Below the pieces are notes generated by a model. That model was given only the letters and a program-made list of their open reading frames with translations. It did no database searches and had not been told where the DNA came from. Below are positions 16,128 to 41,697 of a stretch of DNA of 43,689 nucleotides, piece by piece. Source of the stretch: a virus (taxonomy: Duplodnaviria; Heunggongvirae; Uroviricota; Caudoviricetes). The stretch spans positions 1-43,689 of the IMG/VR virus record IMGVR_UViG_3300045988_038444; one strand, written 5' to 3'. Within the stretch, counting starts at the first letter, position 1. Each line of letters begins with the position of its first letter. The position numbers and the translations under genes were made by a program.

Positions 16128-16145
16128 TCTAAAAAGCGACAAACG

Positions 16146-16187
16146 TTTAAAATAATTCTTGACGGATTACACAATGATGTGTAACCT
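16146..16187 (+). promoter_or_regulatory. Early promoter copy P1 (TTTAAAATAATTCTTGACGGATTACAC; -35 TTGACG 16159-16164, 17-nt spacer, -10 TAACCT)
   Basis: One of ten nearly identical copies of this element. Confidence 0.7.
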
Positions 16188-16217
16188 ACAATCAACAAAA
16201 CAACGGAGAGTTACAAA

Positions 16218-16397
16218 ATGGCTACTTTCATCATTCTTTTCTTAATCGCTGCTGTATATCTGATCCCAGCACTCATCGCGATTAACGTTAAACATAAACA
16301 ACAAACAGCAATTATTTTACTTAACATCTTTGCGGGTTGGACATTCGTCGGTTGGTTAGGTGCGTTAATCTGGTCTGTGTTAAAAAGCGACAAATAA
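16218..16397 (+). CDS. Superinfection immunity (Imm-like) small membrane protein (59 aa)
   Basis: MATFIILFLIAAVYLIPALIAI...FAGWTFVGWLGALIWSV matches the Imm/PF14373-like pattern. GGAGAG SD. The track's minus ORF 16211..16393 is its shadow. Confidence 0.55.
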   Translation: MATFIILFLIAAVYLIPALIAINVKHKQQTAIILLNIFAGWTFVGWLGALIWSVLKSDK

Positions 16398-16398
16398 G

Positions 16399-17310
16399 AT
16401 GAGTAGGAAACGTTTAACCACAGAAGAGTTTATCACGCGTGCCCGTGAAGTTCATGGGCACAAATACGATTACTCACTAGTGGAGTATTTGAATTGGCGC
16501 ACACCTGTGAAAATCATCTGTCCTATACATGGAGTGTTTGAACAAATTCCTAATAATCATTTAAAAGGACGCAAGTGTTTATTCTGTGCAGGAAATCAAC
16601 AATCAAATACCAATGAATTTATCACAAGGGGGCGCGAAGTTCATGGGGGTAAGTATGGTTATTCGTTGGTGAAATATAAAGACTCTCGGACCAAAGTGAA
16701 AATCATTTGTCCAATACACGGAATGTTTGAACAACGTCCATATAGTCACTTGCAGCAAAAAGCAGGTTGCCCACAATGTGCTTGGGAACAATTGTCTGAA
16801 CAAAGACGTTTATCCGCCGAAGAATTCATTACTCGTGCTCGCGAAGTTCACGGGGACCGTTACGACTATTCGTTGGTGGAGTATGTTAACAATTCCACCC
16901 CTGTAAAAATTATTTGTTCAGAACACGGTGTGTTTGAACAGACACCGGGCAATCACACATTTATGAAAGCTGGCTGTCCCCAGTGCGCTGAAACAGGTTT
17001 TAATCCGTCAGAACCCGGCACGTTATATGTACTCGCTGATGATAAACAGTATCCCACTCTGATTAAAATTGGTATTACAAACGACTTAAAACAGCGACTA
17101 CGACAACTACAACGACGAACTCCGCATCTTGTGGTTAAACTTGTATCGTATCCGTTCCCACATGGCGCTGACGCTTACAAACTGGAACAAGAGGTACACA
17201 AGGTCTTTCACGAACTTAATGCGCGTCTCAAAGGCTTTGACGGTGCTACAGAGTGGTTTAAATACTCTCCTGCAATCCTCGATTACATAAATGAAAAAGC
17301 CCGGAACTAA
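16399..17310 (+). CDS. Homing-endonuclease-like protein HE-1: three N-terminal ~60-aa zinc-ribbon repeats + C-terminal T5orf172/GIY-YIG-like domain
   Basis: Three repeats of EEFITRAREVHGxKYDYSLVEY...KIICPIHGVFEQ...GCPQC. C-terminal GTLYVLADDKQYPTLIKIGITNDLKQRLRQLQRR. Inserted between the G/G-T chaperone genes and the tape measure. Confidence 0.6.
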   Translation: MSRKRLTTEEFITRAREVHGHKYDYSLVEYLNWRTPVKIICPIHGVFEQIPNNHLKGRKCLFCAGNQQSNTNEFITRGREVHGGKYGYSLVKYKDSRTKVKIICPIHGMFEQRPYSHLQQKAGCPQCAWEQLSEQRRLSAEEFITRAREVHGDRYDYSLVEYVNNSTPVKIICSEHGVFEQTPGNHTFMKAGCPQCAETGFNPSEPGTLYVLADDKQYPTLIKIGITNDLKQRLRQLQRRTPHLVVKLVSYPFPHGADAYKLEQEVHKVFHELNARLKGFDGATEWFKYSPAILDYINEKARN

Positions 17311-17330
17311 CCGGGCTTATGTTTATTTTT
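17297..17330 (+). terminator. Rho-independent terminator after HE-1
   Basis: Hairpin AAGCCCGGAACTAACCGGGCTT followed by a T-rich run. Confidence 0.6.
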
Positions 17331-18025
17331 CTTCATCTCGACAACACGTGCAGACCGCAATGCTGTTAACAATTTCCATAGGAACTGTACATCAACGTTG
17401 TACACCCGTGCGTAACGTTCACAGGCAACCCAATCACTATTTATCAAATCAAGATAAGCATACCAATAAAAAACAGCATCAGGTCGCAATTCAGGACGTT
17501 TCTGTACAACAACCGGAACAGATATACCACGTGCAGCCGCCCCTTGTGTAACCCAGTCCAGGTCGTCCCCGTCTGTCTTATCGTTCCACAAGAGGAAGTC
17601 GATCAGTTTTTTTCAATCTGTTTTTCCCATTCGTCCTGGAAGAATGCGGAATTAATTGCGAACTGAATAACACGGCTGTAGATCACCTGACCAAAACGTT
17701 CATCACTTAACAATTCAATAGCTTCTTCGACACTGAATGGTTCCGGTTTGTCATCTTCACCAATCAGTTTCCAGTCCAGCATAAGAACGTTAGCCACAAA
17801 CTTAACACCTTCTGGTGTATATTCCTGATTCCACAGTTTTTCAAAGAAGTTTTCAGACAACACACCGTTCTGTTTTACATAGTCCGCGACTGTTACGTTA
17901 TATACCTGGTTAGCGGTGTTCAGGTTCAACACGGTGATACTGAAATTTTCATTTAAAATCAGTTCAGCAGAAGACTTCAGCACCAGTGGAGAAAGTGCTT
18001 TTTTCAGATGGTCAAACTTTGACAT
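17307..18025 (-). CDS. Tail assembly chaperone G-T fusion via programmed -1 frameshift at AAAAAAC (~17606-17612)
   Basis: The -1 frame after the heptamer runs KKLIDFLLWNDKTDGDD... to 17307. This matches the canonical G/GT arrangement. Confidence 0.5.
17603..18025 (-). CDS. Tail assembly chaperone G
   Basis: 140-aa acidic protein upstream of the tape-measure region. It ends at a slippery A AAA AAC (plus strand 17606-17612) just before its stop. Confidence 0.55.
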   Translation of the reverse strand: MSKFDHLKKALSPLVLKSSAELILNENFSITVLNLNTANQVYNVTVADYVKQNGVLSENFFEKLWNQEYTPEGVKFVANVLMLDWKLIGEDDKPEPFSVEEAIELLSDERFGQVIYSRVIQFAINSAFFQDEWEKQIEKN

Positions 18026-18090
18026 GGTTTTTTTACCTTTTATGTAGTAGACGATTAGATAGTAATAGTTCTGTACAAATTACGCAAGAG

Positions 18091-18133
18091 ATTTAAAATA
18101 ATTCTTGACGAATTACATCTGTTAAGGTATCTT
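18091..18133 (+). promoter_or_regulatory. Early promoter copy P2 (-35 TTGACG 18105-18110, -10 TATCTT)
   Basis: Conserved element ATTTAAAATAATTCTTGACGAATTACA. Confidence 0.7.
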
Positions 18134-18165
18134 TAACTCAACGAAACGAACTGAGGGTAAGAGGG

Positions 18166-18789
18166 ATGGCGATTATTAACATGGGTTGGCATAGTTCTGT
18201 TTTTGAAGGAAATGTTAAACTCCTGGAAGGGGCATATAGTCCTATCCATCGTAATGATATTGGTGGCGATTACCCACCATCTTATTTTCTATACGAAACT
18301 GATCATGGGTGCTGTATCAAAGAACGTGAACGTAACGGTTACCATGATTCAGATTTTGAAATGTTAATATGGAACCCTGAAACAAAAAAGCGCTTCATGG
18401 TATACATTTGCAACTACCCGTGGTTGGTGTTATCCATGCTATGGTTCACGCCCAGATGCAACACCAGAAGTTTTAGAAGCATATAATATTTATGAACAAC
18501 AGCAAGAGGAAAAACGGCAACGTTATTGCAAAATAAAAAGAGTAAACAAGCAACGCAAACTGAACGCACAGTTTAGATTAATAGTACGTGAATTTGGTGT
18601 TGATCGCGAACAAGTTGAAAAACTTTATAAATTATATCACCCAGATATGTTCCCTGTATTTTGTAAACTTCTTAACAGTAATTTACGTTCTGATTTCCGT
18701 AAAAGTTTACGTAAACAACTAGTTGATTGGTTAAAAGGGAACGGTAAGTACGATAAACCATTTTCACCTAAACAAATTCAGTATTTATG
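18166..18789 (+). pseudogene. Split gene: N-terminal ORF 18166..18486 and a +1-frame continuation open 18368..18789, junction at an A6 run (18384-18389)
   Basis: Second frame open for ~140 codons with no ATG and ending 3 nt before the terminator; the two frames overlap only around gaaacAAAAAAgcgc. Confidence 0.4.
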
Positions 18790-18792
18790 AAT

Positions 18793-18819
18793 AAAAAAGC
18801 CCCGGTTTAACGCCGGGGC
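18793..18819 (-). terminator. Rho-independent terminator, strongest on the minus strand (after the major tail protein gene)
   Basis: Hairpin GCCCCGGTTTAACGCCGGGGC with an A6 run on the plus side, which is a U-run on the minus strand. Confidence 0.6.
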
Positions 18820-18839
18820 AACCACTACCAACCACCATG

Positions 18840-20297
18840 TCATGCTGTAGGCAGATATGGGAACAAGCTGAACCCAATCATAAAACCGATCGACTCTTCT
18901 TCGTGGGCGTTACCGCTAACAGTGACTTTCACTTTTTCGCCCGTCACAAGGTTTTTGGAACCGTCGCCCAGTGTCATCGCAGGAATGTTAACCACGATTG
19001 CACCGTCACCGTTTACCCCGGCAAGTTCGAAGTTGACTGTTGCGTTGTTACGGATCGCAGCCAGTACAGCACCGTCTGTCATCACCGTTTCAGTTTCCAT
19101 TGTGATTTCCAGGTTACCGATGTTGGTAAACGCAGCACCCATCACGCCCAGCACGTTTTCACCTGACACGTTGTTATTCACGGTGACAGTAACGTCTTTC
19201 AGGAACGTACTGAGTCCACTATCATCGATCCCGGTCAGTCGTACACGGTTCAGGTTCGTTACGGTGTTGTACGCTTCGTTAGCCACGAATTCAACATACC
19301 CGGAACCCGGCAGCGCGGTTTCTGACGGTGCTGATAAATCCTGTGCTACAAACGTCAGATCCATTGTCATTTTTTCAGTCAACGGTGCGTTGATCGTCAT
19401 CTGGTTTGCAGCTACAGCACGCGCATATTCATAAATAACAGGTGTCGTGTTGTAACGTACTTCCATTGTGTATTCAGTTTTAACGAACTCTGCAGAGTCA
19501 ACAGGAACGTTTCGAACAAAACTGGAAACAAATAAACGTACAGTTTTACCCGTACCTTCTTCAGTGGTGAATTCACTGTTAGCGAGAGTCAGAATATGAT
19601 CACCAACCATAGTCACACGGGCCATTTTACTGGTTACGGACTGTGTTAGACCATCAATATAAACATACTGTCCCGGTACTAAACCCAGTGTGGAAAAATC
19701 CAGGGTGGTAGACGTCAACTGACCATTACTGTTAACAGCGATTTCACCAGACGCTGCAGCATGCCCCACGAGATATAAACGAGCTTCAGCAGGCGGTGAC
19801 GCTTCGGCACTAAGCCCTGACACGTTGATAGCAGTAGTGGTACTATCAGCGCCTACAGTTTTCAAACCGTTGTTTGCAGCCAGTGTAAAACCTGTCGCAT
19901 AAACAAGAGCACCTTTAGGTAATGCCGCATCAAGAGTAGTAACGTTATAAGCATCAGCGCCAACACTGGTAACGTCAATATCAATTGCACCAGCACCGAC
20001 CCATTTACTATAAAGGAATCCGTCACCCCAGTAGCGGAACGTATCAAGTGTCAGGTCTGTCTGAAAGCCCGGTGCAACTTCAACGTTAGTTACCGTGCCT
20101 TTACGTGCAGATCGGTCCGTACTGATCGGTGTACGCTGAGTCTTTGTAATATCAGCACTGTAAGAACTGATTTCATTCGGTTGTTGAACCGTCCAGGGTG
20201 TACCAAAAACAGGTTCACAGACTTTTGCCACACTGAGTCGTGTTGCGTTTACATCAGTCGCAGGTGTTTGCGAACATTTAAAAATTGATTCAGCCAT
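18840..20297 (-). CDS. Major tail (tube) protein, 485 aa, with a C-terminal extra (Ig-like?) domain
   Basis: Abundant Thr/Val-rich beta protein at the position between the tail completion protein and the chaperones. Confidence 0.6.
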   Translation of the reverse strand: MAESIFKCSQTPATDVNATRLSVAKVCEPVFGTPWTVQQPNEISSYSADITKTQRTPISTDRSARKGTVTNVEVAPGFQTDLTLDTFRYWGDGFLYSKWVGAGAIDIDVTSVGADAYNVTTLDAALPKGALVYATGFTLAANNGLKTVGADSTTTAINVSGLSAEASPPAEARLYLVGHAAASGEIAVNSNGQLTSTTLDFSTLGLVPGQYVYIDGLTQSVTSKMARVTMVGDHILTLANSEFTTEEGTGKTVRLFVSSFVRNVPVDSAEFVKTEYTMEVRYNTTPVIYEYARAVAANQMTINAPLTEKMTMDLTFVAQDLSAPSETALPGSGYVEFVANEAYNTVTNLNRVRLTGIDDSGLSTFLKDVTVTVNNNVSGENVLGVMGAAFTNIGNLEITMETETVMTDGAVLAAIRNNATVNFELAGVNGDGAIVVNIPAMTLGDGSKNLVTGEKVKVTVSGNAHEEESIGFMIGFSLFPYLPTA

Positions 20298-20330
20298 TGT
20301 TCTAAGCCTCGTTTGATTGCAATCATTCGT

Positions 20331-20340
20331 AGTTTAATAT
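20331..20340 (-). promoter_or_regulatory. Candidate late promoter -10 (TATATTAAACT) about 34 nt upstream of the major tail protein ATG
   Basis: TAAACT lies at the same distance from the ATG as in the TerL and tape-measure upstream regions, but the CCCGTG part is absent. Confidence 0.25.
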
Positions 20341-20759
20341 ATTTCTTCGTATTCGTAACTAAGTACGACGTTCGTTAAAAACCACGCGTTATCACGACCC
20401 TGATGACGAATATCAACACTCGTGTAAATTAACGGGCGGTCCTGCCAGACACCTTCAAATAATTTTGCAAGCCGATCCGCAATATCAATACTCAAAGTGT
20501 CCATGCCATACTGAGCAGGTGTGCGTACCTGTAAAAAAACGTTTCCTGTTCTTAAACGACGACGACAAACACCTTCCCCACCCAGCGTGGTTATTGTCCA
20601 CGGACCGGGATTGTGTGTCAGAATCAGACCGGGTTTTTCTGTAGTGTCATCAGGGAGTTGACCAGAAGCGATTGTAAATCTGTCAGGCGTAATTTCCACG
20701 GGGAGATTCGCCAGAACGCGATTATAAACAATTCCTGAAACATCTGAGAGTGTCATCAC
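20334..20759 (-). CDS. Tail completion / tail terminator protein (SPP1 gp17-like, DUF3168-like pattern)
   Basis: 141-aa protein with IVYNRVLANLPVEITPDRF...P, at the synteny position. Confidence 0.4.
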   Translation of the reverse strand: MMTLSDVSGIVYNRVLANLPVEITPDRFTIASGQLPDDTTEKPGLILTHNPGPWTITTLGGEGVCRRRLRTGNVFLQVRTPAQYGMDTLSIDIADRLAKLFEGVWQDRPLIYTSVDIRHQGRDNAWFLTNVVLSYEYEEIY

Positions 20760-21184
20760 TGATTAAACCTCACCATTATTCCGGCTTTTAATATAGCACG
20801 TTCGACAAACCCGGAAGGTGTCTGTGTACTGCTACCACCATTGAGAACCCCAATGTAAGGAACGTTGTTAGTAATATGCAGTTCCTGACCATTAACTTTA
20901 ATACTGCTGATAGTGACTGTATCCTGTTCGATACGTGCTTTACTGGCTTCAACATTACCTGTTGGTGTATCAGGACTATTAGCGGGTTGCCCCTGATCGA
21001 ACCACCAGTTGTTGCTTGCCCAGCCACTCAATATTGGTGTACCATCAGGAGGCTCACTTATGAGTATGTTACGTAGTGTTAAAACATATCTAATGACTTG
21101 ACGATCCGTAAAATCTTGTAAGTCGGCTTTTATGTCTTTAAACACTCCAGTAATACGATTTATATCATTGATTTTGCTAGTCAT
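20756..21184 (-). CDS. Head-tail joining protein (HK97 gp10-like)
   Basis: Start trimmed to ATG 21184 to avoid overlap with the divergent HE-2; contains ISEPPDGTPILSGWASNNWW. Confidence 0.4.
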   Translation of the reverse strand: MTSKINDINRITGVFKDIKADLQDFTDRQVIRYVLTLRNILISEPPDGTPILSGWASNNWWFDQGQPANSPDTPTGNVEASKARIEQDTVTISSIKVNGQELHITNNVPYIGVLNGGSSTQTPSGFVERAILKAGIMVRFNQ

Positions 21185-21206
21185 TGACAAACCTAAAGGT
21201 AGAAAA

Positions 21207-22103
21207 ATGGGCGGTAAAAGACTAACCAAAGAACAACTAGAGCATAACATAAAAGATATTTGTCAATCAAAAAATTACAAATTTATAAAATGGAAAGACG
21301 GGTTTAAAAACAAAGAATCACGAATTATTTTATCTTGTGTTACACACGGGGAATGGGACACTAAATGTTATCATTTTTTGAATGGTTCTGGTTGTCCGAT
21401 CTGTGGTGGAACACGAACCACAAAAGGGTTAAGAATTGCACAGATTAAAGACAGTTTAACAAATTCTAAATCAAAGTTTATTAAATTTAAAACTAATTTT
21501 CAAAATGGAAATTCTGTTTGTTTGCTGAGCTGTATTGATCATGGTGGATGGGAGACAACAGTCAATAGACTAATCTTTACATCTGTTGATTGCCCGTTGT
21601 GTATAACGAATAGACAGAAAACTAAACAAGAACGAGAAATTGAAATAACAAATAGATGTAAAGAAACAGGGTTGTTTTTTAATAAGATATTCGACGAACA
21701 TCCGACATGGAAATCTAAAATATCATTAAAGTGTTCAACGCATGGTGATTTTGTTACAACAATTAATTCTTTTCTTAGTAAACAAAAAGGTTGTCCAAAC
21801 TGTAGTAAAACAGGGTTTAAAGCTGGTAAGTATGCAACACTTTATGTCTTGCGGTCCACATGCGGTCGTTACGTTAAAATAGGTATCAGTAATTGTGTAG
21901 AGCAAAGAATTAATACACTTCGTAGAAAAACACCATTTGATTTTCAAGTAATAGAAAAATTGAATGGACACGGGGCAACCATTCGTTCACTTGAAAAAGA
22001 TTTTCATTCTCATTTTGAATCTGCAGGATTAACCGGGTTCGATGGTTGTACAGAGTGGTTAAAATGGAATCCAAATATAACCACTCTGATACGGATGTTA
22101 TAG
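21207..22103 (+). CDS. Homing-endonuclease-like protein HE-2: three CxxHG...CPxC zinc ribbons + C-terminal T5orf172/GIY-YIG-like domain
   Basis: CVTHGEWDT..GCPICGG, CIDHGGWET..DCPLC and CSTHGDFVT..GCPNC. C-terminal ATLYVLRSTCGRYVKIGISNCVEQRINTLRRK...FDGCTEWLKWNPNITTLIRML. Start trimmed to ATG 21207. Confidence 0.6.
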   Translation: MGGKRLTKEQLEHNIKDICQSKNYKFIKWKDGFKNKESRIILSCVTHGEWDTKCYHFLNGSGCPICGGTRTTKGLRIAQIKDSLTNSKSKFIKFKTNFQNGNSVCLLSCIDHGGWETTVNRLIFTSVDCPLCITNRQKTKQEREIEITNRCKETGLFFNKIFDEHPTWKSKISLKCSTHGDFVTTINSFLSKQKGCPNCSKTGFKAGKYATLYVLRSTCGRYVKIGISNCVEQRINTLRRKTPFDFQVIEKLNGHGATIRSLEKDFHSHFESAGLTGFDGCTEWLKWNPNITTLIRML

Positions 22104-22481
22104 TTATACCGCTCCAACAGGATGAATAAATGCCATATCATCCCCTAACAATCGTGGGTTTTGACGATCAAGAAGGCGATATTCTTTACCACGTTCATCA
22201 ACCACAACATCACCCCGATCAGGAACAAATCGTGGTTCAAAACTCTGACTATCCATAATTACCATCGTTGTGGTTATTCTGGTCATAGTAGTCGGATCCC
22301 ACTTTTCTAATGGGTAAATATAACCACGACACGTATGCGATTCAGTAACGGTTGTACCCGGTAATGTAGGATTAGACGGGTTGGGAACTGTTATCACACG
22401 TTTTACCGTCAAATCCTCACCTACTTCAGCAAGTGCACGAGTAACACCTTTCAGGACACTTTGACGTTTGTCTGCCATCAC
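22104..22481 (-). CDS. Head closure / head-tail adaptor protein (putative)
   Basis: 125-aa protein in the connector module; called on synteny only. Confidence 0.35.
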   Translation of the reverse strand: MMADKRQSVLKGVTRALAEVGEDLTVKRVITVPNPSNPTLPGTTVTESHTCRGYIYPLEKWDPTTMTRITTTMVIMDSQSFEPRFVPDRGDVVVDERGKEYRLLDRQNPRLLGDDMAFIHPVGAV

Positions 22482-22888
22482 CGTTCACCCTCGTTAAGTG
22501 CACGACCACCGCTTTCAAGTGTTACAGGTGGGTTGTCGAACTGACCACGTTGAATAGCAGGTTGCATACCAGCGCCAGTTAATGTAGCTCCACCAACACC
22601 CATAAAACTACCTAACAAACCGCCACCTGAATCAGCGCCAGTATTAATACGTAAAATAAAATCTTTTTTAAGTTTATTCCAGGCGTCTGCTGACTGACTA
22701 CTGCTGAGTGAGATCGGACCTACTTTAATGTCAGTATCGTTGCTGGCAATAGACGCCATATAATCACAGAGAGCGACGCAAATACTGAGAGGATTTGTAT
22801 AACCGTTGTCAATGTACCACTGAATTTGTTCATCAGTAACATCAGGGACACTGATCAAATAACGAATACCTTCAACTGTAATAGCCAT
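22478..22888 (-). CDS. Head-tail connector protein (putative)
   Basis: Start trimmed to ATG 22888 with AGGTGA SD; the track's N-terminal extension lacks an SD. Confidence 0.4.
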   Translation of the reverse strand: MAITVEGIRYLISVPDVTDEQIQWYIDNGYTNPLSICVALCDYMASIASNDTDIKVGPISLSSSQSADAWNKLKKDFILRINTGADSGGGLLGSFMGVGGATLTGAGMQPAIQRGQFDNPPVTLESGGRALNEGER

Positions 22889-22926
22889 GTGATCACCTGT
22901 GAGAAATGTTTTCGTTATATTAGCAC

Positions 22927-22952
22927 GAAAAAAAGCCGTCTTAAACAGACGG
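22927..22952 (-). terminator. Rho-independent terminator on the minus strand
   Basis: Hairpin GCCGTCTGTTTAAGACGGC followed by U7 when read on the minus strand. Confidence 0.65.
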
Positions 22953-23162
22953 CAAATGGCTCTGGGTGATAATGAGGGTTTTACATAACTGGTCATCCAC
23001 ACCTGACGTCCCAACATACCCCTATGCGTGACACGTGAATAACCAGTTATGTAAAACGACACGCAGTTCAGGATGTTTCACAACATGCTTTACCCACGAT
23101 TTGCGGCTTTCCCGCCAGCAAGATAAGGATCACCTCCTTATCAGCGAGTGTTTGGGTTGTGG

Positions 23163-23235
23163 CGGTTGGAATCGAACCAACTCCCATCGGTGCGATTCCA
23201 ACCGCAGTACGCGCAGCGGTCCGCTACATGACTAG
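23163..23235 (-). ncRNA. tRNA-like element: canonical T-arm (GGTTCGATTCC) within an 8-bp acceptor-like helix (GCGGTTGG...CCAACCGC-CA), plus an upstream D-arm-like stem containing GG
   Basis: Minus-strand RNA ...GCGGUUGGAAUCGCACCGAUGGGAGUUGGUUCGAUUCCAACCGCCA. No room for an anticodon arm could be found by eye. Confidence 0.25.
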
Positions 23236-23459
23236 TATTTTCACGGTCGCCTATCTGCTAGCTCGCCATTGAGCTTCACCACAACGGAAAGAGCACTGGA
23301 ACTTGGGCTGAGTATTACCGCATGTCTTTCGACTTCGAACCAAGGCTGACATTACCCAATGCTCTTACCTGTTATGTGCCGGTTACGTTTATCCGGCGTC
23401 TTTCGACCGATTAAGTGATAGTGTCTGCTATGCAGTTCTGTCACTGACTTAACAATAGG

Positions 23460-23813
23460 TCAAGAATAGTTATATGTCAAGCCTTGTGATTCACACCATT
23501 TAGCAGCGGCACTTTTACTACTAAACGATTCTGAATTCATCGGCATACCCATAACATAAACATTATAGGTTTTTGGCGCATCACGTCGGATTTCAGCCGC
23601 AGTGGTTGATGCCGATTCTTCGGTTGCTACAGTCACTGGTTCTTCAACGGTCGCAGTAGCTGGTTCAATGTGGCGCATACGCACAAGGGCGTTTAAAACA
23701 GCCGGGGTAGCTTTTGATGTTGATACTTTATCGCCAGCGGACATCTGTTTACCGTTCCACAGCATCGGACGGGTGAAAACATATTTCAGTGACGGATCAT
23801 ATGAATTACGCAT
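23460..23813 (-). CDS. Hypothetical structural-module protein (117 aa)
   Basis: Start trimmed to ATG 23813 with GAGGT SD, directly after the post-MCP terminator. Confidence 0.45.
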   Translation of the reverse strand: MRNSYDPSLKYVFTRPMLWNGKQMSAGDKVSTSKATPAVLNALVRMRHIEPATATVEEPVTVATEESASTTAAEIRRDAPKTYNVYVMGMPMNSESFSSKSAAAKWCESQGLTYNYS

Positions 23814-23830
23814 GATTTTAACCTCATGAA

Positions 23831-23858
23831 AAAAGGGGCAGCATAAGCCACCCCTTAA
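23831..23858 (-). terminator. Rho-independent terminator immediately after the major capsid gene (minus strand)
   Basis: Minus strand AAGGGGTGGCTTATGCTGCCCCTTTTTT. Confidence 0.6.
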
Positions 23859-23875
23859 TGATATCACAGTTGTTA

Positions 23876-24895: not shown

Positions 24896-24898
24896 CGG

Positions 24899-27637: not shown

Positions 27638-27651
27638 AATCTATGATCTAC

Positions 27652-32526: not shown

Positions 32527-32556
32527 ACAAACATCAAAACAAAGGAGGACACAATC

Positions 32557-32901: not shown

Positions 32902-32916
32902 CAGGAGAAAACTTAA

Positions 32917-33249: not shown

Positions 33250-33255
33250 AAATTA

Positions 33256-33283
33256 AGGGACCAGAAACGGTCCCTTTTTAATT
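33256..33283. terminator. Bidirectional rho-independent terminator between the converging + cassette and the portal gene
   Basis: Hairpin AGGGACCAGAAACGGTCCCT flanked by A/T runs on both sides. Confidence 0.7.
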
Positions 33284-34638
33284 CAGTCGTCAATAGACGG
33301 TAACCCATCCCCGGCTTTATCAATCCCCGTAATAGGTAGACCCGCCTCTTTATATACGTATTCCTGAAGGTCTGGATCCGGGAATACAGGCGCGCCAGCT
33401 TGTGCAAGTCGTGCAAGTGCAGTGGTCAACGTTTCGATACTGTCTTTACTGATCGACCCGGCGCGAATCGACGGGCGGTATTCATCAGGAAATGCGTTTA
33501 ACGACCATAACTGCGGTATCAACTGACGATTAACACATTCTACAATGCTGTCAATACGTGATTGCATTGCGCGGATCCATAATTCAGTACGACTACCCAG
33601 GTTAGCATTATTCCCGGTATTACCACCCGTTCCGAAAAACATGAAATCAGCCAGTAACGCACGGGCAATACTGGTATCCAGGCGTTTAATCGTCCGGTCA
33701 ATATCCACAGAACTGGTCTGATTAGGTGTAACGAATTCCAGTTTCACCTGTTGTTCACCACCATACGTGGTAACACCTGTTTCGTTATCGTAACCCGTGA
33801 TATACGGTTTAGAATAAATCACCAGTCCTGATTGTTCATTGCGTTTGATATTAGCGACGATGTTTTCATAGTTATCAATCATCGCCTGTGCTGCCTGACG
33901 TTGTTGTTCAGGAACGTTGGGGTCATTAGCCGCTTTCTTAATATCTGCGTTAACAGTAATTACCGGGAACCCTGTACCACGTTCGGCAAGTATGGATTCG
34001 ATTTCCATATTCACTTTTTTGTAGTACCACGGACGATAAGCTGTGCGCAGCAGTGATAAACCTTCCGGGTTACCTTTATTCGGACTTGAAATCAAATGAA
34101 GCGAACGGTCACGCGTGATTAACGTCGTTGTACCCTGGTTAGGTGAACGTTGATAAATACCACGAACATAACCTGTCGGTTCTTCAATGTCCCAGCCAGC
34201 AAGCGTTTCAGGTGCTACAGGAACCAGACGGGCAATACCCACCGTGCCATCATCAAGGTCTTTCACCCAGATGTCATACCAACCCCAGCCAAACACATCA
34301 ACGTCTGTCCATGTCTGAACGAACGCGGACCAGGTATCGTCCGGGAGTGCACCACGCGGATCACCCATTTTATTTTCAACAGCATCCTGTAACCATTCTG
34401 AATAACGAATAGCTTCTGGATCATCTTTGTCAGACGGGTCAAAAATCCACTGTACAGAACGATAAACGCTACTCATAGCGAATAACACACCGCCAATAGT
34501 TTCGTCGTTCTCAGCCATCTGACGCAGAATACGACGGCCTTGTTTACCGTTCAGCTTAGGAAGGAAATCGTCGTTTACCTGGTTGCCTGTTCGACTGTAC
34601 CCGGCAACGGCTAGTTGTTCGAATTGTTGATCAGCCAT
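33283..34638 (-). CDS. Portal protein (451 aa)
   Basis: Size, position downstream of TerL and upstream of head morphogenesis, and an acidic C-terminus. Confidence 0.7.
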   Translation of the reverse strand: MADQQFEQLAVAGYSRTGNQVNDDFLPKLNGKQGRRILRQMAENDETIGGVLFAMSSVYRSVQWIFDPSDKDDPEAIRYSEWLQDAVENKMGDPRGALPDDTWSAFVQTWTDVDVFGWGWYDIWVKDLDDGTVGIARLVPVAPETLAGWDIEEPTGYVRGIYQRSPNQGTTTLITRDRSLHLISSPNKGNPEGLSLLRTAYRPWYYKKVNMEIESILAERGTGFPVITVNADIKKAANDPNVPEQQRQAAQAMIDNYENIVANIKRNEQSGLVIYSKPYITGYDNETGVTTYGGEQQVKLEFVTPNQTSSVDIDRTIKRLDTSIARALLADFMFFGTGGNTGNNANLGSRTELWIRAMQSRIDSIVECVNRQLIPQLWSLNAFPDEYRPSIRAGSISKDSIETLTTALARLAQAGAPVFPDPDLQEYVYKEAGLPITGIDKAGDGLPSIDD

Positions 34639-34667
34639 GTTCTACAGGCTCCATACGGTTTACGGTT

Positions 34668-34680
34668 CTTAACGTATGTT
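34668..34680 (-). promoter_or_regulatory. Candidate late promoter (ext -10 CACTGATATAAC) upstream of the portal gene
   Basis: Minus strand ccatCACTGATATAACatacg, about 30-40 nt upstream of ATG 34638. Same motif as at 6204-6216 and 30168-30176. Confidence 0.4.
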
Positions 34681-34706
34681 ATATCAGTGATGGTTTTTTT
34701 GCACGG

Positions 34707-34749
34707 TGTTAAAATAATTCTTGACGAATTGCAAACGTGCGATTATGCT
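34707..34749 (+). promoter_or_regulatory. Early promoter copy P6 (-35 TTGACG 34721-34726, -10 TATGCT)
   Basis: GTTAAAATAATTCTTGACGAATTGCA. Confidence 0.7.
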
Positions 34750-34780
34750 TTAGTCATCAAATGAACGAAGGGTGATAACT

Positions 34781-35092
34781 ATGAAACCGAATGAAAATAT
34801 TACACAACTGGATATTGCTTTTGGACCTAAAAACATTGCTGAATTTCTCCCGGCGATGGGTAGTATTCCGAAAGAATTTTTCGAAAATTCTAACCCGTGG
34901 AATCAGTGGGTCAGCAAATGGTTCTTCAACGGTCTGAAAGAATACGCAGTTGCTGTTGAAGGTGTGAACTTTAAAGATGCTCACGCGCATATCAAAGTGA
35001 TCCTGGGTAGTTTCGAACCTAAACACGAACATAAAATTGCCGGGTGTGCGTATCTCGCGTCAATGTGGTTTGTACCGGAGACAGTTAAATGA
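34781..35092 (+). CDS. Hypothetical protein (~103 aa)
   Basis: Start trimmed to ATG 34781 (AAGGGTGA SD). Confidence 0.45.
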   Translation: MKPNENITQLDIAFGPKNIAEFLPAMGSIPKEFFENSNPWNQWVSKWFFNGLKEYAVAVEGVNFKDAHAHIKVILGSFEPKHEHKIAGCAYLASMWFVPETVK

Positions 35093-35235
35093 ATCCAAGA
35101 AATATTAGTCGCCCGTGGGTTGAAAATTCACGCTCCGATCACTTCGAACGCCGTAAAGCAGAAGTTAAACGCTTGGTTGCCGCTGGTCACACTAAAAAAC
35201 GTGCACAACAAATTGCTAAAAGTAAGGGGTTTTGA
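35089..35235 (+). CDS. Small basic protein (48 aa)
   Basis: ATGA-coupled start at 35089. Confidence 0.3.
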   Translation: MNPRNISRPWVENSRSDHFERRKAEVKRLVAAGHTKKRAQQIAKSKGF

Positions 35236-35238
35236 ATT

Positions 35239-35397
35239 ATGGTATATGTTCTGATTTTCATTCTTAGTAGTAACATGATCGGTAGTGCTGAATTTAATAG
35301 TAAATCTGCATGTGAACAAGTAAACAAAGATATTCGTACAGCCGGACACCACGTGTGGGCGAAATGTTATCCGAAAGGTATGATAAACGGAGAATAA
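35239..35397 (+). CDS. Small protein with a hydrophobic N-terminus (52 aa)
   Basis: ATG 35239; MVYVLIFILSSNMIGSA looks like a signal peptide or TM helix. Confidence 0.3.
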   Translation: MVYVLIFILSSNMIGSAEFNSKSACEQVNKDIRTAGHHVWAKCYPKGMINGE

Positions 35398-35399
35398 TC

Positions 35400-35735
35400 A
35401 TGAATCATGTAAACGCTATTCGCTGTAATGATGAATATCAGTGTTCACACTGTGGTAAATCGTGGGATATCCACGAAGAAGCGCCAGATTGTAAAATGAC
35501 ACTGGTTAGTGCAGATGTGTATAAAACTGTCAATTATTTTGGTTTGTCTTTAACTGTTCCTGAAGATATTGACTATATAGCCACGAATAGTTACGGGGTT
35601 GTTTACGGGTATTTTAGTGAACCAGAACTATGTGATGAATTTTGGGATAATCATCGTTACGGTATCCCAAAAGTGAGGCTTGCAACTGTAAACCTACACG
35701 GGCTGAACTGGCGGGAGACTCTAAGAAAATGTTAA
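35400..35735 (+). CDS. Zinc-binding hypothetical protein (111 aa)
   Basis: Start trimmed to ATG 35400 (GGAGA SD); contains CSHCGK...C. Confidence 0.45.
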   Translation: MNHVNAIRCNDEYQCSHCGKSWDIHEEAPDCKMTLVSADVYKTVNYFGLSLTVPEDIDYIATNSYGVVYGYFSEPELCDEFWDNHRYGIPKVRLATVNLHGLNWRETLRKC

Positions 35736-35890
35736 TTGGCTATGTACTGGTGCTTGTTCTACACGGTGTGGCTATTGAACCTGTGACAGAACGTATTATG
35801 ACGTTCGAACAGTGTCAGGGTGCTTTACAAGCTGAACAGGCTTACAACCCTGATAAAAATTACGGGTGTGCTGAAGTTTATCGGGACTAA
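35729..35890 (+). CDS. Small secreted/membrane protein (53 aa)
   Basis: ATG overlaps the previous stop; hydrophobic N-terminus LIGYVLVLVLHGVAI. Confidence 0.3.
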   Translation: MLIGYVLVLVLHGVAIEPVTERIMTFEQCQGALQAEQAYNPDKNYGCAEVYRD

Positions 35891-35977
35891 TTATTATGGA
35901 ATACATGTACATTGCTTTCTCACTTCTGTTAATGATTGTTGTCGTTATTACAACTGAGAAAAAAAGAACAAGGTGTG

Positions 35978-36172
35978 ATGGGTTTAGCAGTTGCTCTGAT
36001 TCGTGTTCTTTCAATCATGTTGCTGGTAACCAGTTTTTCAATTGCTTTTGACATCGTGGAATTACAAAGCGATTATTACGGTTTTGTGAAACTTCAACAT
36101 CAGTTGACATACGCCGTCATATTCGGTTTAGGTTCTGTTAGCCTCGCTGTTCTTTCATCTTTCAGACATTGA
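35978..36172 (+). CDS. Small membrane protein (64 aa, 2 TM)
   Basis: Start trimmed to ATG 35978 (AAGGTG SD); ends 6 nt before the terminator. Confidence 0.4.
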   Translation: MGLAVALIRVLSIMLLVTSFSIAFDIVELQSDYYGFVKLQHQLTYAVIFGLGSVSLAVLSSFRH

Positions 36173-36198
36173 AAAAAAGCCCCGGACAGTTCCGGGGC
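36172..36198 (-). terminator. Rho-independent terminator (strong on the minus strand, after TerL)
   Basis: Minus strand GCCCCGGAACTGTCCGGGGC + U7. Confidence 0.7.
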
Positions 36199-36299
36199 GA
36201 AGTCGATTAGTAAAACGTGAACGCGGAAAACTGTAATGGTACTATGAACGGACTGGTAAACCCTCTGAAAACGGGCGGGAATAATCCCGCCACACTGTT

Positions 36300-38063
36300 T
36301 TAAAAAATGTCACCGTATTCAGGAGTACCAACAGGATTCACACTACCAGTAAATGGTTCTTCGACAAATTCGGTGCGTTTTGGTGATAGTGCAATAACCG
36401 CAGCGTCGAAAAAGTTTGGTGACTTACTTCCGTTTGGTTTCTTGTCGATCACAATCTTCCCGGCACCGTTACTGGTATACGTTGGCTGACTTAACTCAGC
36501 TTCTAACCGTTGTGCGTTTTCCAGTGACGGATCAATCAGAATGATTTCGTCCGGATCCTGTGGTTGACCTTCCACATACCATTTATAAATTCGCTGACAA
36601 CGCAGGCGTAACGCCCACGATGCTTGTGCTTTATAATTTGAGAAATAATCTTTGTTTGATTTACGGTCTTTGTCACCAGGTTTTGTACCACCGATAATAT
36701 CACCACCCGGATCCACAACTTTTCCATTCGGTAACCACGGGCGCACACGGAAGCGTAAAATATCTTTCCGGTCATTTGCCGCTACTTTAACGCCTGTACC
36801 AACACCGTTAACTTCGTACCAGTATTCATCAACACCCAGCATATTAGCCATCGTCAACATTCCCGGTGCAGCCAGTTCAGCACCCCTGTGGTCAAGTTGC
36901 AGATGTGTCAGGAATACACCGTGAGCAATTACCAGCGCACTGGCATCTTCCCCACCGTCTGCTGCGTCCTGTCCGGCAATACGTTGACCTGTTGGTGTAA
37001 GTAGTCCATTAACTTTGCGCCATTCTGTGTCACGGAAAGCGTCAAAAGCAGCGCGTACCCATTCAGCTTTAATCAACACCCCCTGAACAGCAGCGGCATA
37101 ATCGCGGTCAACTTCCTGTGCGAAAATATGCTGTAAACCTTTTTCAGCGAACGATTGTTTTTCTCGCTTATACCATTCATCGTCTTTAGCCGGGTGATCA
37201 CGCCAGTCAAGAACCATTACACGCAATTTACCACGGGGTAATTTCTTGCCCGGTTCCCATTCCAGACCAGCTTTACGATTACGATAAAAAACGTTACCAA
37301 CACCGTTAACTGAACTGATGTCGATACGAACGTTGGTGTTAGCTGACAACGACGCTTCAATCAGTTCAGGACGGTCTACGTGTGCCGCTTCGTCCAAGAA
37401 GTAGACAGATTTACGACCACCACGACCGATGTTGTCACCAGCTTCACCAGTAATTGTTGCACCGTTTTCAGGGTTGATACATTTCATGTAAACCAGATGG
37501 TCTTTTTCACGCAGACCAACAGGACGTAATTCCGGTGGTAATGCGCGGATAATCTGGCGAATCTTTTCAAAAATACTATCCGGGTCACCCAGTTTATCGA
37601 CAAGCTGCTCTTTACGTGACCCCCAGCCAACTGAAGAACCAGGACGATACAGCCACGCCCACACGGATAAACCACAGGCTACCCAGGTCGCACCATAGTC
37701 TCGTGATTTTTCCCAAAGTCCTTTTTCTTTGTCTTCAAGCGCTTCATAAACAAACTGAACCATATCGATCTGACGTTCGAAAAGGCAGAAAGGCATGTTG
37801 GGTGGATATTCAGTACCGACGTTACGCGGGTCGTAAGTAAACGCCCAGTCGAGGATAAACGCTACCGGGTTTGTTTCGTAATACTTTTTCAGCACCGGGA
37901 CAATTGCCCGATCCGTGCGCATACGGTTTAACAGGTTAATACGGTCAATGTAACACTGCTTGTAATCCGGGCGTGGCTGACCTTTTCGCCAGATACGTTC
38001 GTCATTTGCGTAGGCATCACGCCAGCGCGGGTAATTATGAATATTTCCAGTAAACTTATTCAT
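36300..38063 (-). CDS. Terminase large subunit
   Basis: 587 aa; Walker A-like ...YGATWVACGLS..., ATPase/nuclease two-domain size, located upstream of the portal. Confidence 0.8.
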   Translation of the reverse strand: MNKFTGNIHNYPRWRDAYANDERIWRKGQPRPDYKQCYIDRINLLNRMRTDRAIVPVLKKYYETNPVAFILDWAFTYDPRNVGTEYPPNMPFCLFERQIDMVQFVYEALEDKEKGLWEKSRDYGATWVACGLSVWAWLYRPGSSVGWGSRKEQLVDKLGDPDSIFEKIRQIIRALPPELRPVGLREKDHLVYMKCINPENGATITGEAGDNIGRGGRKSVYFLDEAAHVDRPELIEASLSANTNVRIDISSVNGVGNVFYRNRKAGLEWEPGKKLPRGKLRVMVLDWRDHPAKDDEWYKREKQSFAEKGLQHIFAQEVDRDYAAAVQGVLIKAEWVRAAFDAFRDTEWRKVNGLLTPTGQRIAGQDAADGGEDASALVIAHGVFLTHLQLDHRGAELAAPGMLTMANMLGVDEYWYEVNGVGTGVKVAANDRKDILRFRVRPWLPNGKVVDPGGDIIGGTKPGDKDRKSNKDYFSNYKAQASWALRLRCQRIYKWYVEGQPQDPDEIILIDPSLENAQRLEAELSQPTYTSNGAGKIVIDKKPNGSKSPNFFDAAVIALSPKRTEFVEEPFTGSVNPVGTPEYGDIF

Positions 38064-38089
38064 GGTTATCGGCCCGTTTGTAACTGTTC

Positions 38090-38112
38090 TGTATAGTTTA
38101 CCACGGGTGATT
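38090..38112 (-). promoter_or_regulatory. Candidate late promoter motif caCCCGTGgTAAACTataca about 32 nt upstream of the TerL ATG
   Basis: Paired with the near-identical motif upstream of the tape-measure gene. Confidence 0.35.
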
Positions 38113-38125: not shown

Positions 38126-38170
38126 ATTTAAAATAATTCTTGACAGATTGCAGAAGTGGTGTCAGACTCT
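38126..38170 (+). promoter_or_regulatory. Early promoter copy P7 (-35 TTGACA 38140-38145)
   Basis: GATTTAAAATAATTCTTGACAGATTGCA. Confidence 0.65.
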
Positions 38171-39320: not shown

Positions 39321-39527
39321 ATGTTCAGATACGTTTTAAAATTACTCGCCATTATTGCAACATGGCTAATCATACAGTCCGGGTATGACCTGCGTGTTCG
39401 TAACCAATGTTCAGACTATCAACGCATTACACGAACTGCGACAATCTACAGTCACGGTATTTGTTACGCGGCAGACAGTGACGGACAGTTTAAAATAATT
39501 CTTGACGGTTTACACATCATCAGATAG
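39321..39527 (+). CDS. Small protein with an N-terminal TM/signal (68 aa); its C-terminus (..[13 protein letters not shown]) is encoded by promoter P8
   Basis: ATG 39321 with AGGAG SD. Confidence 0.4.
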   Translation: MFRYVLKLLAIIATWLIIQSGYDLRVRNQCSDYQRITRTATIYSHGICYAADSDGQFKIILDGLHIIR

Positions 39528-39530
39528 ACT
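39490..39530 (+). promoter_or_regulatory. Early promoter copy P8 (-35 TTGACG 39502-39507, -10 TAGACT)
   Basis: GTTTAAAATAATTCTTGACGGTTTACA lying inside the 3' end of the upstream ORF. Confidence 0.7.
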
Positions 39531-39829: not shown

Positions 39830-40068
39830 TGAGTACGAAAACAACAATTATCAACTGTTTTCGGAAAGTTACTGGGTACGATCCGAATGTAATTATCACC
39901 GCCAACGGTTTGTATTATTCGGTAGATAATTATGGTCTGAACAATACTTTATGGAGTGTTCCACCACAACAAATTATTACTGACCATAAACAACCACATC
40001 GTAAAACAGGTATTGCAAAAGCCCGACGCGATGCGAAGAAAAGAAGGAACCGGAAATTAAACGGTTGA
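39826..40068 (+). CDS. Hypothetical protein with a basic C-terminus (80 aa)
   Basis: ATGA-coupled start; C-terminal [26 protein letters not shown]. Confidence 0.45.
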
Positions 40069-40102
40069 TTATCTCATTCACAAATTAAACAGGAAAACAA
40101 AT

Positions 40103-41017
40103 ATGAACTTCTTTAAAAACGCTATTATTTATCGTCTGACTAATCCTATGGCACTAATGGCCCAGTTGCCAACACTGGAAGACAGCCTGTGTGCGTTTCA
40201 ATTCAATCCATGTGGTTCACAGGATATGGCGCGTACTGGTTGGGTTCCGGCAACTGAACAACATCATACGCTGGTTCACCAGGCTAATGGGCAATATCTG
40301 CTGACCATCCAGAAACAGGAAAAGATTATTCCTGGTCCGGTCATTAAACAGCATCTGAACGCGCGAATCGCCAAACTGGAAGCGGAACAGGCGCGTAAAC
40401 TGAAGAAAACAGAGAAAGATAGCCTGAAAGATGAAGTATTGCACAGTCTGTTACCACGAGCATTCGTTAAAAACAGTCGTACACAGTTGTGGATTGATAT
40501 CACTAGCGGGTTGATCGTGGTTGATGCGTCCAGTGCTAAACGGACTGAAGACGCATTAGCACTATTGCGTAAATCCCTGGGTAGTCTGCCAGTCGTCCCA
40601 CTGACAACTGAAAACCCTGTTGAACTGACAACAACGGAGTGGGTACGTTCAGGAAACGCGCCAACAGGTTTCACAATGGGTGATTCTGCGGAATTGAAAG
40701 CAATCCTGACTGACGGCGGTGTTGCACGCGTTAAAAAACAGGATTTAACCAGTGATGAAATAGCCACGCATATTGAAGCAGGAAAAGTTGTTACAAAACT
40801 GGCTCTGAACTGGCTGCAGCGGGTAACGTTTACGCTAACTGACAGCATGACGTTAAACCGTGTGAAATTCTGCGACGGGTTGCTCGACCAGAACGACGAT
40901 ATCGATCGTGAAGACAGTCTGACACGATTTGACGCTGATTTTGTACTAATGACAGGTGAACTTCAGGCGCTGATCAAACAACTTATCACTGCTTTGGGTG
41001 GGGAGGCTAAACGATGA
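40103..41017 (+). CDS. rdgC: Recombination-associated protein RdgC
   Basis: Strong end-to-end similarity to E. coli RdgC by recall (e.g. [105 protein letters not shown]). Confidence 0.85.
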
Positions 41018-41346
41018 GAACAGAACAGGAACGTATTATTCAGTGGTTATGTTCTGGTGAAACCGGACTAAGCTCTAAAACGATGGTCTGCATTCACACG
41101 GGTAATGAAATGGGTTACGGCTGGGAGTTTAGAGCACCCTTTGACGTTTCTGATTTTCGCCGTTGTTGGTTCCTGGTTGAAGCTGTGCCAGAAATCAGAA
41201 ACAGTTTTCCGTTGATTGCTGAAAAGTGTCCGGCGTTTAAAGGTGTGATTGAAAACTGGGACGTTATTAGCGCAGCTTATGAACGTGAACGCGGATCCGG
41301 TAAATGTCCTGAAACGTATCGGTTACTGAAAGAAAGTTTAAAATAA
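41014..41346 (+). CDS. Hypothetical protein (110 aa); its C-terminal ..SLK* is encoded by the UP element of P9
   Basis: Track ORF, ATGA-coupled to rdgC. Confidence 0.45.
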
Positions 41347-41378
41347 TTCTTGACGGGTTGCACAAGGAAGTGTAATAT
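41336..41378 (+). promoter_or_regulatory. Early promoter copy P9 (-35 TTGACG 41350-41355, ext -10 TGtTAATAT)
   Basis: GTTTAAAATAATTCTTGACGGGTTGCA. Confidence 0.7.
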
Positions 41379-41412
41379 TACCTCATTGAAACGAATTATG
41401 AGGAACCGGAAA

Positions 41413-41604
41413 ATGTTATTTACAAAAGAATGGTATGAAATCATGGAGTCTTTCGAAAAGAATTGCAAAGGGCGTTTTCGTTTTGACCGTGAAGAAAAAG
41501 AAATGTGGAAAATTGGTGCGTACTATCAGCAAGGAGAATGTAACGAGTGGTTCAAAATGTTTCTTGCTGGTTATATGGCTGGTCGTGCTACTTATCTCAA
41601 CTAA
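41413..41604 (+). CDS. Hypothetical protein (63 aa)
   Basis: Start trimmed to ATG 41413 (GAGGA SD). Confidence 0.4.
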   Translation: MLFTKEWYEIMESFEKNCKGRFRFDREEKEMWKIGAYYQQGECNEWFKMFLAGYMAGRATYLN

Positions 41605-41613
41605 TGCGTAAAA

Positions 41614-41634
41614 CGCCCCGTAAGGGGCTTTCTT
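41614..41634. terminator. Rho-independent terminator between the + cassette and the TerS 3' end
   Basis: Hairpin GCCCCGTAAGGGGC + TTTCTT. Confidence 0.6.
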
Positions 41635-41697
41635 ATATCACCCTGTACCCTTGCACCACCCATCAACAGATCGTCGAAACGCAAACGGTTTCCGGCG

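Follow-up and report, generated by a model that had tools for sequence, protein, structure and literature searches.

Opposite-strand gene blocks sharing a predicted promoter module among the morphogenesis genes of a 9NA-like siphophage

Layout of the morphogenesis genes and the plus-strand blocks

We analysed the whole of the IMG/VR record IMGVR_UViG_3300045988_038444 (43,689 nucleotides, hereafter the window), in which the head and tail morphogenesis (late) genes of a tailed phage are interrupted by blocks of genes on the opposite strand. A nucleotide search with the region 16141-36000 matched more than 100 9NA-like records. The window is approximately 95% identical to Escherichia phage KarinMuster_Bas82 (Bas82) over 85% of this query, with further matches to Sashavirus isolates and to Salmonella phages Sasha, Sergei and 9NA, and more distant ones to Klebsiella phages. 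The portal protein, TerL and the major capsid protein (MCP) have 94-100% amino acid identity to those of Bas82, 9NA and Sasha. Judged by these matches, the window is a 9NA-like (Sashavirus/Nonanavirus) siphophage. Its orientation is the reverse of that in the GenBank records of its relatives.

The gene map was built from a six-frame open reading frame (ORF) map, the Bas82 annotation and a tblastn matrix against four close relatives (Bas82, 9NA, Sasha and Klebsiella phage Carvaje). Every morphogenesis gene is located on the minus strand according to all three sources, as an earlier sequence-only reading of this DNA had claimed. These late genes were found in all four relatives, nearly all with 60-100% amino acid identity, and the distribution of the plus-strand genes was patchy. 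The late genes are split by seven plus-strand blocks, C1 to C7 (Table 1). Six of them had been placed correctly by the sequence-only reading, which missed C3; its count of at least eight cassettes corresponds to these seven blocks or, counted by promoters, to nine promoter-led units and the block C3.

The plus-strand ORFs are real genes because they match known protein families. Pfam matches include Imm_superinfect (3e-17), dUTPase (3e-18), RdgC (7e-115) and DUF2560, and the two endonuclease genes match T5orf172 (E-values of 4e-13 and 5e-5) and MUG113 (3e-12 and 3e-8). Most of the small plus-strand ORFs match PHROG families, with best E-values down to 1e-54. No long minus-strand ORF spanning a cassette interval is present in the ORF map, and the GC skew changes sign with gene orientation, from positive values in the plus-strand blocks to negative ones across the late genes.

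Table 1. Positions of late genes, plus-strand blocks and predicted signals in the window.
Feature	Position	Strand	Remarks
TerS	41698-42447	-	PHROG terminase small subunit
TerL	36300-38063	-	
Portal	33283-34638	-	
Head morphogenesis	29178-30137	-	
MCP	23876-24895	-	
Tail terminator and Neck1	20334-21187	-	
Tail tube	18840-20297	-	
Tail assembly chaperones	17307-18025	-	
Tape measure (TMP)	13519-16101	-	
C1	16218-17310	+	Imm_superinfect membrane protein (16218-16397); T5orf172 homing-type endonuclease (16399-17310)
C2	18166-18790	+	phrog_30881 gene (Sasha gp43), split by an extra A
C3	21207-22103	+	T5orf172/CapR-domain endonuclease
C4	27815-29111	+	Five small genes (23, 182, 53, 91 and 57 amino acids)
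C5	31420-33249	+	dUTPase and four small genes; predicted internal early promoter at 32486-32526
C6	34781-36172	+	Six small genes, patchily conserved
C7	38201-41604	+	Ten genes including RdgC (40103-41017); predicted internal early promoters at 39490-39530 and 41338-41378
Predicted early promoter, C1	16147-16187	+	UP-like TTAAAATAATTC, -35 TTGACG, ATTACA spacer block, -10 TAACCT
Predicted early promoter, C2	18093-18133	+	TTGACG-17-TATCTT
Predicted early promoter, C4	27743-27783	+	TTGACG-17-TATCTT
Predicted early promoter, C5	31344-31385	+	TTGACA-18-TAACAT
Predicted early promoter, C6	34709-34749	+	TTGACG-17-TATGCT
Predicted early promoter, C7	38128-38168	+	Family 17-mer
Predicted early-type promoter on the late strand	27456-27416	-	17-mer copy with two mismatches at 27456-27440
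Candidate late promoter, TerL	38094-38108	-	ACCCGTGGTAAACTA, about 30 nucleotides upstream; TACAGAAC directly downstream (38086-38093)
Candidate late promoter, TMP	16114-16128	-	ACCCGTGTTAAACTG; TTAAACT core kept in five genomes
Candidate late terminator/promoter composite	30143-30176	-	TGATATAAT, a perfect extended -10, then a hairpin abutting the head-morphogenesis ATG
C1/chaperone hairpin	17297-17318	both	U-tract on minus strand, T-rich tail on plus strand; usable on both
Predicted tail-tube terminator	18799-18819	-	U-tract on minus strand only; A-tract on plus side
C4/head-morphogenesis hairpin	29132-29165		No U-tract on either strand
Predicted C5/portal terminator	33255-33276	both	A-tract upstream and T-tract downstream; good bidirectional
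Predicted TerL terminator	36179-36198	-	Strong; U-tract on minus strand only, A-tract on plus side
Second hairpin after TerL	36274-36291		
C7/TerS hairpin	41615-41628	both	Short, GC; moderate U-tracts on both strands
Post-MCP hairpin	23856-23833	-	
Hairpin before head morphogenesis	30166-30143	-	U-tract runs into the ATG

Predicted promoters and terminators on the two strands

An exact 17-mer, TTAAAATAATTCTTGAC, occurs nine times in the window, always on the plus strand (at 16147, 18093, 27743, 31344, 32486, 34709, 38128, 39490 and 41338). When up to three mismatches were allowed there were 12 matches against 0.44 expected, and none of 100 shuffled sequences gave 12. Each copy comprises an A/T-rich UP-like element and a consensus -35 box (TTGACr), followed by a spacer of 17-18 nucleotides and a TAnnnT -10 box, and a Shine-Dalgarno sequence and start codon are located 55-75 nucleotides downstream. 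The extended module has 26 nucleotides, TTTAAAATAATTCTTGACrgATTrCA, and is followed by the TAnnnT -10. A promoter consensus was computed from 52 distinct instances in five genomes, replacing one from IMG/VR loci that had been biased by the search pattern. The ATTRCA block directly after the -35 box is near-invariant in this consensus, with T in 52 of the 52 instances at two positions and C in 51 of the 52 at another.

A predicted promoter of this family heads six of the seven blocks, with internal copies in C5 (one) and C7 (two), so the earlier claim that each cassette has its own promoter holds for all blocks except C3, where a generic scan found only a weak match (9/12). The generic sigma-70 scan also detected six of the TTAAAATAATTCTTGAC promoters, although the total counts from the generic sigma-70 and terminator scans of the window are at chance level. 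What is non-random is the specific promoter motif and the placement of hairpins, and not the generic scan totals.

The same module is present in 9NA, Sasha, Carvaje and Bas82 in 9-14 copies per genome, mostly without any change, heading orthologous cassettes. In these relatives it also heads the operon for DNA polymerase, exonuclease and annealing protein, and a group of small genes that follows the primase gene and includes a ParB-like one. A perfect -35 box with an UP element is the type of promoter that unmodified host RNA polymerase uses right after infection. Since the module also heads replication operons, we infer that the plus-strand cassettes are early genes.

Several further observations concern this module. 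The early-type promoter on the late strand is directed into the head genes and would drive a gene for a protein of 146 amino acids (26975-27415, minus strand), located upstream of them. The N-terminus of this protein resembles the DNA-binding repeat of T5orf172 endonucleases and is followed by five copies of a 21-nucleotide tandem repeat (VEPVTTA); the gene is found in Bas82 and not in 9NA, Sasha or Carvaje. An imperfect palindrome, TAATACAGAACGTGTAYTA, occurs twice, 63 nucleotides apart, at 27650-27740, within the long non-coding stretch between two divergent early-type promoters. Among the Proteus relatives, TTGACnnATTACA resembles the ATTRCA-containing promoter core of the window. Proteus phage PM-CJR has a repeated divergent-promoter module of its own, with TAAATAGTTTAAATATGGCTTGACAnATTACA on the cassette strand, at 7040, 18874 and 23639; the TTGACnnATTACA core is common to this module and the window promoters, and the UP region differs. 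About eight viral contigs share with the window only approximately 34 nucleotides (38126-38159), which correspond to the early-promoter module. In IMGVR_UViG_2588254173_000002 (4738-5264) the module is located approximately 45 nucleotides upstream of a DUF1902 (HicB-like)/HicA toxin pair. The flanks of this contig resemble temperate Klebsiella phages, with tail-fibre and antirepressor genes adjoining the HicA pair, and the pair with its shared module looks like a classic moron.

The five hairpins that the sequence-only reading had placed at cassette ends are all present and are much more stable than shuffled controls (z-scores of -2.5 to -5). They had been described as bidirectional terminators, one for each cassette, and this is only partly borne out. 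The hairpins ending C1, C5 and C7 have a T-rich tail on the plus strand; the one at C5 has the make-up of a bidirectional terminator, and those at C1 and C7 have it approximately. The hairpins ending C2 and C6 lack this tail and would serve the minus strand only; the latter two are predicted terminators of the tail-tube and TerL transcripts rather than canonical cassette terminators. The hairpin at the end of C4 has no U-tract, and no hairpin was found at the end of C3. The late strand has seven strong predicted intrinsic terminators between TerS and TMP, including the post-MCP hairpin and the one before head morphogenesis, and the GenBank record of Sasha has terminators annotated at corresponding places.

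Candidate promoters on the late strand were sought by phylogenetic footprinting of the divergent regions, 20-50 nucleotides upstream of start codons. Upstream of TerL the footprint is GTGGTAAACT(R)TACAGAAC, and its GTGGTAAACT core is conserved in all relatives. Further conserved late-strand footprints are CTGATATAACA upstream of the portal gene, (GTG)TTAAACT upstream of TMP and the tail-tube gene, and CCGTGGTTAACT upstream of the head block in 9NA, Sasha and Carvaje. The TGATATAAT element before the head-morphogenesis gene is conserved in five genomes; a transcript from it would begin within the stem of the adjoining hairpin and would not be halted by this terminator, unlike transcripts arriving from upstream. 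The pattern TGnTAWAHT, which was defined post hoc after viewing the data, is found upstream of four of 12 late-block starts (TerL, head morphogenesis, TMP and holin) against 0.24 expected. In a Vibrio relative an exact 12-mer, CGTGATATACTA, occurs four times, each approximately 40-50 nucleotides upstream of a late-strand gene.

The copy of TGATATAAT near the holin gene (at 6216, minus strand) lies approximately 40 nucleotides upstream of the holin start, where holin (minus strand) and tailspike (plus strand) diverge across a very short spacer (6165-6225). Other sequences were tried and rejected as late promoters. TACAGAAC has six matches against 1.8 expected, and it precedes only TerL, the chaperone gene (at 18068-18075) and the head block; the copies upstream of TerL and the chaperone gene are conserved in all relatives. 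The Proteus repeat TTTAAACTATTTA has a context that more likely fits the UP element of a divergent early promoter.

The sequence-only reading had offered two implications of the layout, multiple internal late promoters or antisense interference. We favour several internal late promoters lacking a -35 box, as these candidate elements suggest. Read-through or antitermination must presumably also happen at some sites, because some terminators are located near the next start codon and because C3 lies inside a late block. Taken further, an antitermination function of the phage could carry one or a few long late transcripts through the late-strand terminators, producing antisense RNA over the cassettes and making internal promoters unnecessary. 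The number of strong terminators between TerS and TMP is consistent with this, as is the limited room for promoters: the post-MCP terminator is 20 nucleotides from the next ATG and the hairpin before head morphogenesis abuts its ATG. Polymerase must also cross C3 antisense, as this block lies within late genes without a late-promoter element or a family early promoter. We nevertheless consider such long transcripts unlikely, given that -10-like elements are conserved past most cassettes in all relatives, and that neither an antiterminator gene nor a put/nut-like RNA was identified and the Rfam search was empty.

Conserved slots with changing contents

Slots C2, C4, C5, C6 and C7 are filled, and headed by the same promoter, in 9NA, Sasha, Bas82 and Carvaje. 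The slots are conserved across Nonanavirus, Sashavirus and Carvajevirus and in the Proteus Gorganvirus PM-CJR (60% portal identity), and partly conserved in Vibrio phages (42% portal identity). Because they are shared by Salmonella, Klebsiella, Proteus and, in part, Vibrio relatives, the comparison indicates a layout ancestral to a family-level lineage, with old slots and changing content, and not eight recent insertions.

The turnover of content differs between slots. C5 is almost core in the relatives. Even Bas82 has other sequence in place of most of C7, which is highly variable between relatives, and of most of the first half of C4; the first two C4 genes have been exchanged there, and the 91-amino-acid gene is present in all four relatives. 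C2 holds a Sasha gene within a Bas82-like backbone, a position where Bas82 and Carvaje hold other genes. This C2 gene is 99.5% identical to Sasha gp43 except for an extra A at 18384-18389 (A6 versus A5), which splits the 207-amino-acid ORF into 18166-18486 and 18647-18790; the frameshift is either real or a sequencing error.

Homology to Bas82 and Sasha tends to break at or just downstream of promoters (18158, 27767, 38156 and 41334/41415) and at terminators (17287, 18786, approximately 36270 and 41609). An island of 80 nucleotides containing only a promoter (41338-41415) is the sole similarity to Sasha and 9NA in its neighbourhood. Promoter/5' untranslated region (UTR) or terminator windows make up 4.8% of the region and contain 11 of the 46 breakpoints found against Bas82 and Sasha; the binomial P of approximately 8e-6 is indicative only, as breakpoints are not independent.

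C1 and C3 differ from the other blocks. The C1 site is empty in Sasha, 9NA and Carvaje, and the Imm-like gene is shared only with Bas82 among the four relatives. In Sasha, the conserved GTGTTAAACTG element comes straight after the chaperone terminator, and TMP is next. The window and Bas82 have, between this terminator and the element, a predicted early promoter with the Imm-like gene and an endonuclease gene. C1 has the predicted anatomy of a textbook moron. The C3 segment (21170-22110) is 941 bp long with 33% GC, is unique to the window and takes the place of 26 bp in Bas82; its insertion altered six codons at the start of Neck1 and two at the end of the gene upstream. Homologues occupy different positions in 9NA (gp46), Sasha (gp06) and Vibrio phages. 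C3 behaves as a putative free-standing homing endonuclease gene, and by this comparison only C1 and the two endonuclease genes appear as recent insertions.

The sequence-only reading had described the operon as a mosaic of moron cassettes and proposed comparison with relatives to see which cassettes are insertions. Gene content is mosaic between relatives, but the flanking late genes are adjacent in relatives for C1 and C3 only, and slots C2 and C4-C7 are filled in every relative examined. A general explanation by classical morons would have each block acquired independently as a promoter-gene-terminator unit between adjacent late genes. C1 fits this fully, with its empty site in Sasha, and the promoter module drives the HicA/DUF1902 pair in unrelated Klebsiella prophage-like contigs. 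For the layout as a whole we consider it improbable, since five slots are filled behind the same promoter in the four close relatives and in the Proteus phage, C5 is nearly core, and a single promoter family common to the replication operons was not imported gene by gene; the phage is, moreover, virulent, so there would be no expression from a prophage state.

Two intergenic regions also differ between the window and its relatives. Approximately 2.1 kb with five small late-strand genes after TerL (Bas82 28721-30816) is missing from the window, where two hairpins are all that is left between TerL and C6 (36172-36300). A gap of approximately 400 nucleotides between head-completion genes (23062-23460) holds a T-arm-like hairpin, GGTTCGATTCCAACC (23128-23204, minus strand), and Carvaje has a tRNA-Ser gene at the equivalent position. 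This element is probably a decayed tRNA; ARAGORN and Rfam searches of the non-coding gaps found no tRNA or other RNA genes, leaving only this T-arm-like remnant.

Strand and timing, and comparison with known systems

It is probable, in our view, that the two strands of the 9NA-like plan carry different temporal classes of genes, with early cassettes set among late genes. Unmodified host sigma-70 RNA polymerase would recognise the 26-nucleotide module and the TAnnnT -10 and transcribe the plus-strand blocks early. These units would supply a small number of genes with accessory, nucleotide-metabolism or host-takeover roles (dUTPase, RdgC, the Imm-like membrane protein and many of unknown function), and their transcription would end at the hairpins of the convergent junctions, which would also halt late transcripts arriving from the opposite side. 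The minus-strand genes may then be expressed as several units, probably restarting at extended -10 promoters without a -35 box just past each cassette, a step for which the support is weaker. Comparison between genera shows that the slots are old and that their content turns over, with breakpoints concentrated at promoter/5' UTR and terminator sequences. In addition, putative free-standing homing endonuclease genes of the T5orf172 type have entered the late operon, as C3 and as the second gene of C1.

Several points weigh against this plan. The terms early and late are themselves read from sequence. The tailspike is a virion gene, yet it is on the plus (early) strand, without an early-type promoter, and the early-type promoter at 27456-27416 is on the late strand, so the separation of strand and time is not absolute. 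The ends of C2 and C6 lack an early-strand U-tract and that of C4 lacks any, which makes some antisense read-through into late genes possible. On the late side, beyond the post hoc definition of TGnTAWAHT, the short motif GKTAAACTR gave four matches genome-wide against 2.2 expected, which is not significant.

Nor does sigma-70 recognition account for the near-invariant ATTRCA spacer block. Tentatively, the 26-nucleotide module could be the operator of a phage factor that shuts off all early units together. It could also be a portable recombination linker by which gene cassettes move inside the family and reach the morons of temperate Klebsiella phages unrelated to it, as in the case of the HicA/DUF1902 pair. 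If true, the module would be a siphovirus counterpart of the promoter-early stem-loop (PeSL) elements of T4, set back-to-back with late promoters that lack a -35 box.

The temporal separation of the strands, which we prefer, can also be set against a regulatory role for the convergent layout itself, in which early transcripts would delay the late genes through antisense or transcriptional interference. The missing early-strand terminators at C2, C4 and C6 and the apparent strength of the early promoters would suit such a role. Against it, predicted terminators are usable in both directions at three junctions and on the late strand at five, and any overlap would be confined to the 3' portions of the genes for tail tube, head morphogenesis and TerL. 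As most junctions appear insulated at least on the late strand, interference is not favoured as the main logic, and we consider it very unlikely. Shadow ORFs in an ordinary uninterrupted late operon, an outcome that the sequence-only reading had itself named as refuting it, are rejected as practically inconceivable by the family searches (RdgC, dUTPase, Imm_superinfect, T5orf172 and the PHROGs), by the empty minus strand and reversed GC skew of the cassette intervals, and by the same annotation in relatives.

The analysis provides a testable map of predicted signals, with approximately ten early promoters that are almost identical to one another, seven terminators on the late strand and the candidate late promoters. 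The 9NA-like phages are used for biocontrol and as models (Sergei; Bas82 in the BASEL collection), and their transcription programme has so far been unstudied. The map marks sites where accessory genes are swapped, and the swapped genes may include host-takeover or anti-defence functions. The promoter shared with a toxin-antitoxin moron of unrelated prophages hints that virulent and temperate phages exchange regulatory modules. The current view of phage genome organisation is unchanged by these findings.

The genome architecture of 9NA-like phages (Nonanavirus, Sashavirus and Carvajevirus) has been described by Casjens et al. 2014 (PMC4153490); among papers citing the main genomics paper of the 9NA group (Zeng et al. 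2019 J Virol), we found nothing on architecture. The window agrees with these phages in gene order, in the promoter module and in opposite-strand blocks at TerS/TerL, TerL/portal, portal/head-morphogenesis group, head morphogenesis/head genes and tail tube/chaperones. It differs in the C3 endonuclease, in new first genes in C4 and C7, in a Sasha-type C2 and in the loss of approximately 2.1 kb after TerL.

In T4 and phi29, early and late genes are located on opposite strands in interleaved clusters, and the late promoters of T4 have no -35 box, only a -10-type TATAAATA box. The window resembles these phages in its interleaved opposite-strand layout and in candidate late promoters without a -35 box. 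It differs in that the candidate late element, TGnTAWAHT, is of the extended -10 type, and in that neither a late sigma factor nor an activator was identified.

Modular shuffling in T4-like phages is mediated by PeSL cassettes (PMC2839356, PMC4122927). As in those cassettes, a near-identical, strong sigma-70-like early promoter is repeated in the window beside variable non-essential ORFs, with breakpoints at the repeats. In contrast, the promoter and stem-loop of the window are at opposite ends of a block and do not form a single short composite. Its promoters are found in divergent regions or run into the 3' end of the ORF before them, and no stem-loop adjoins them; nor does one precede the internal promoters (32486, 39490 and 41338). 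The window blocks also interrupt the opposite-strand head-tail operon of a siphovirus, whereas PeSL cassettes form hyperplastic regions.

The morons of lambdoid phages, reportedly described by Juhala et al. in 2000 and Hendrix et al. in 2000, are matched by C1, an autonomous unit that has its own predicted sigma-70 promoter and terminator and separates late genes which are neighbours in relatives. Unlike morons, the window blocks are mostly conserved multi-gene slots under one phage-wide promoter class and not sporadic single genes, and the family is described as virulent, so the cassette genes would not act in lysogenic conversion. The two endonuclease genes (16399-17310 and 21207-22103) resemble free-standing homing genes of the T5orf172 type (GIY-YIG superfamily) in their predicted T5orf172/MUG113 domains and repeated Zn-ribbon DNA-binding modules, and in a sporadic, site-variable distribution, C3 being low in GC and absent from all four relatives. 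The interrupted late operon is the known and already annotated genome plan of a little-studied phage family, of which the window is a new mosaic isolate; to this plan our analysis adds the promoter and terminator map and the evidence for slot conservation.

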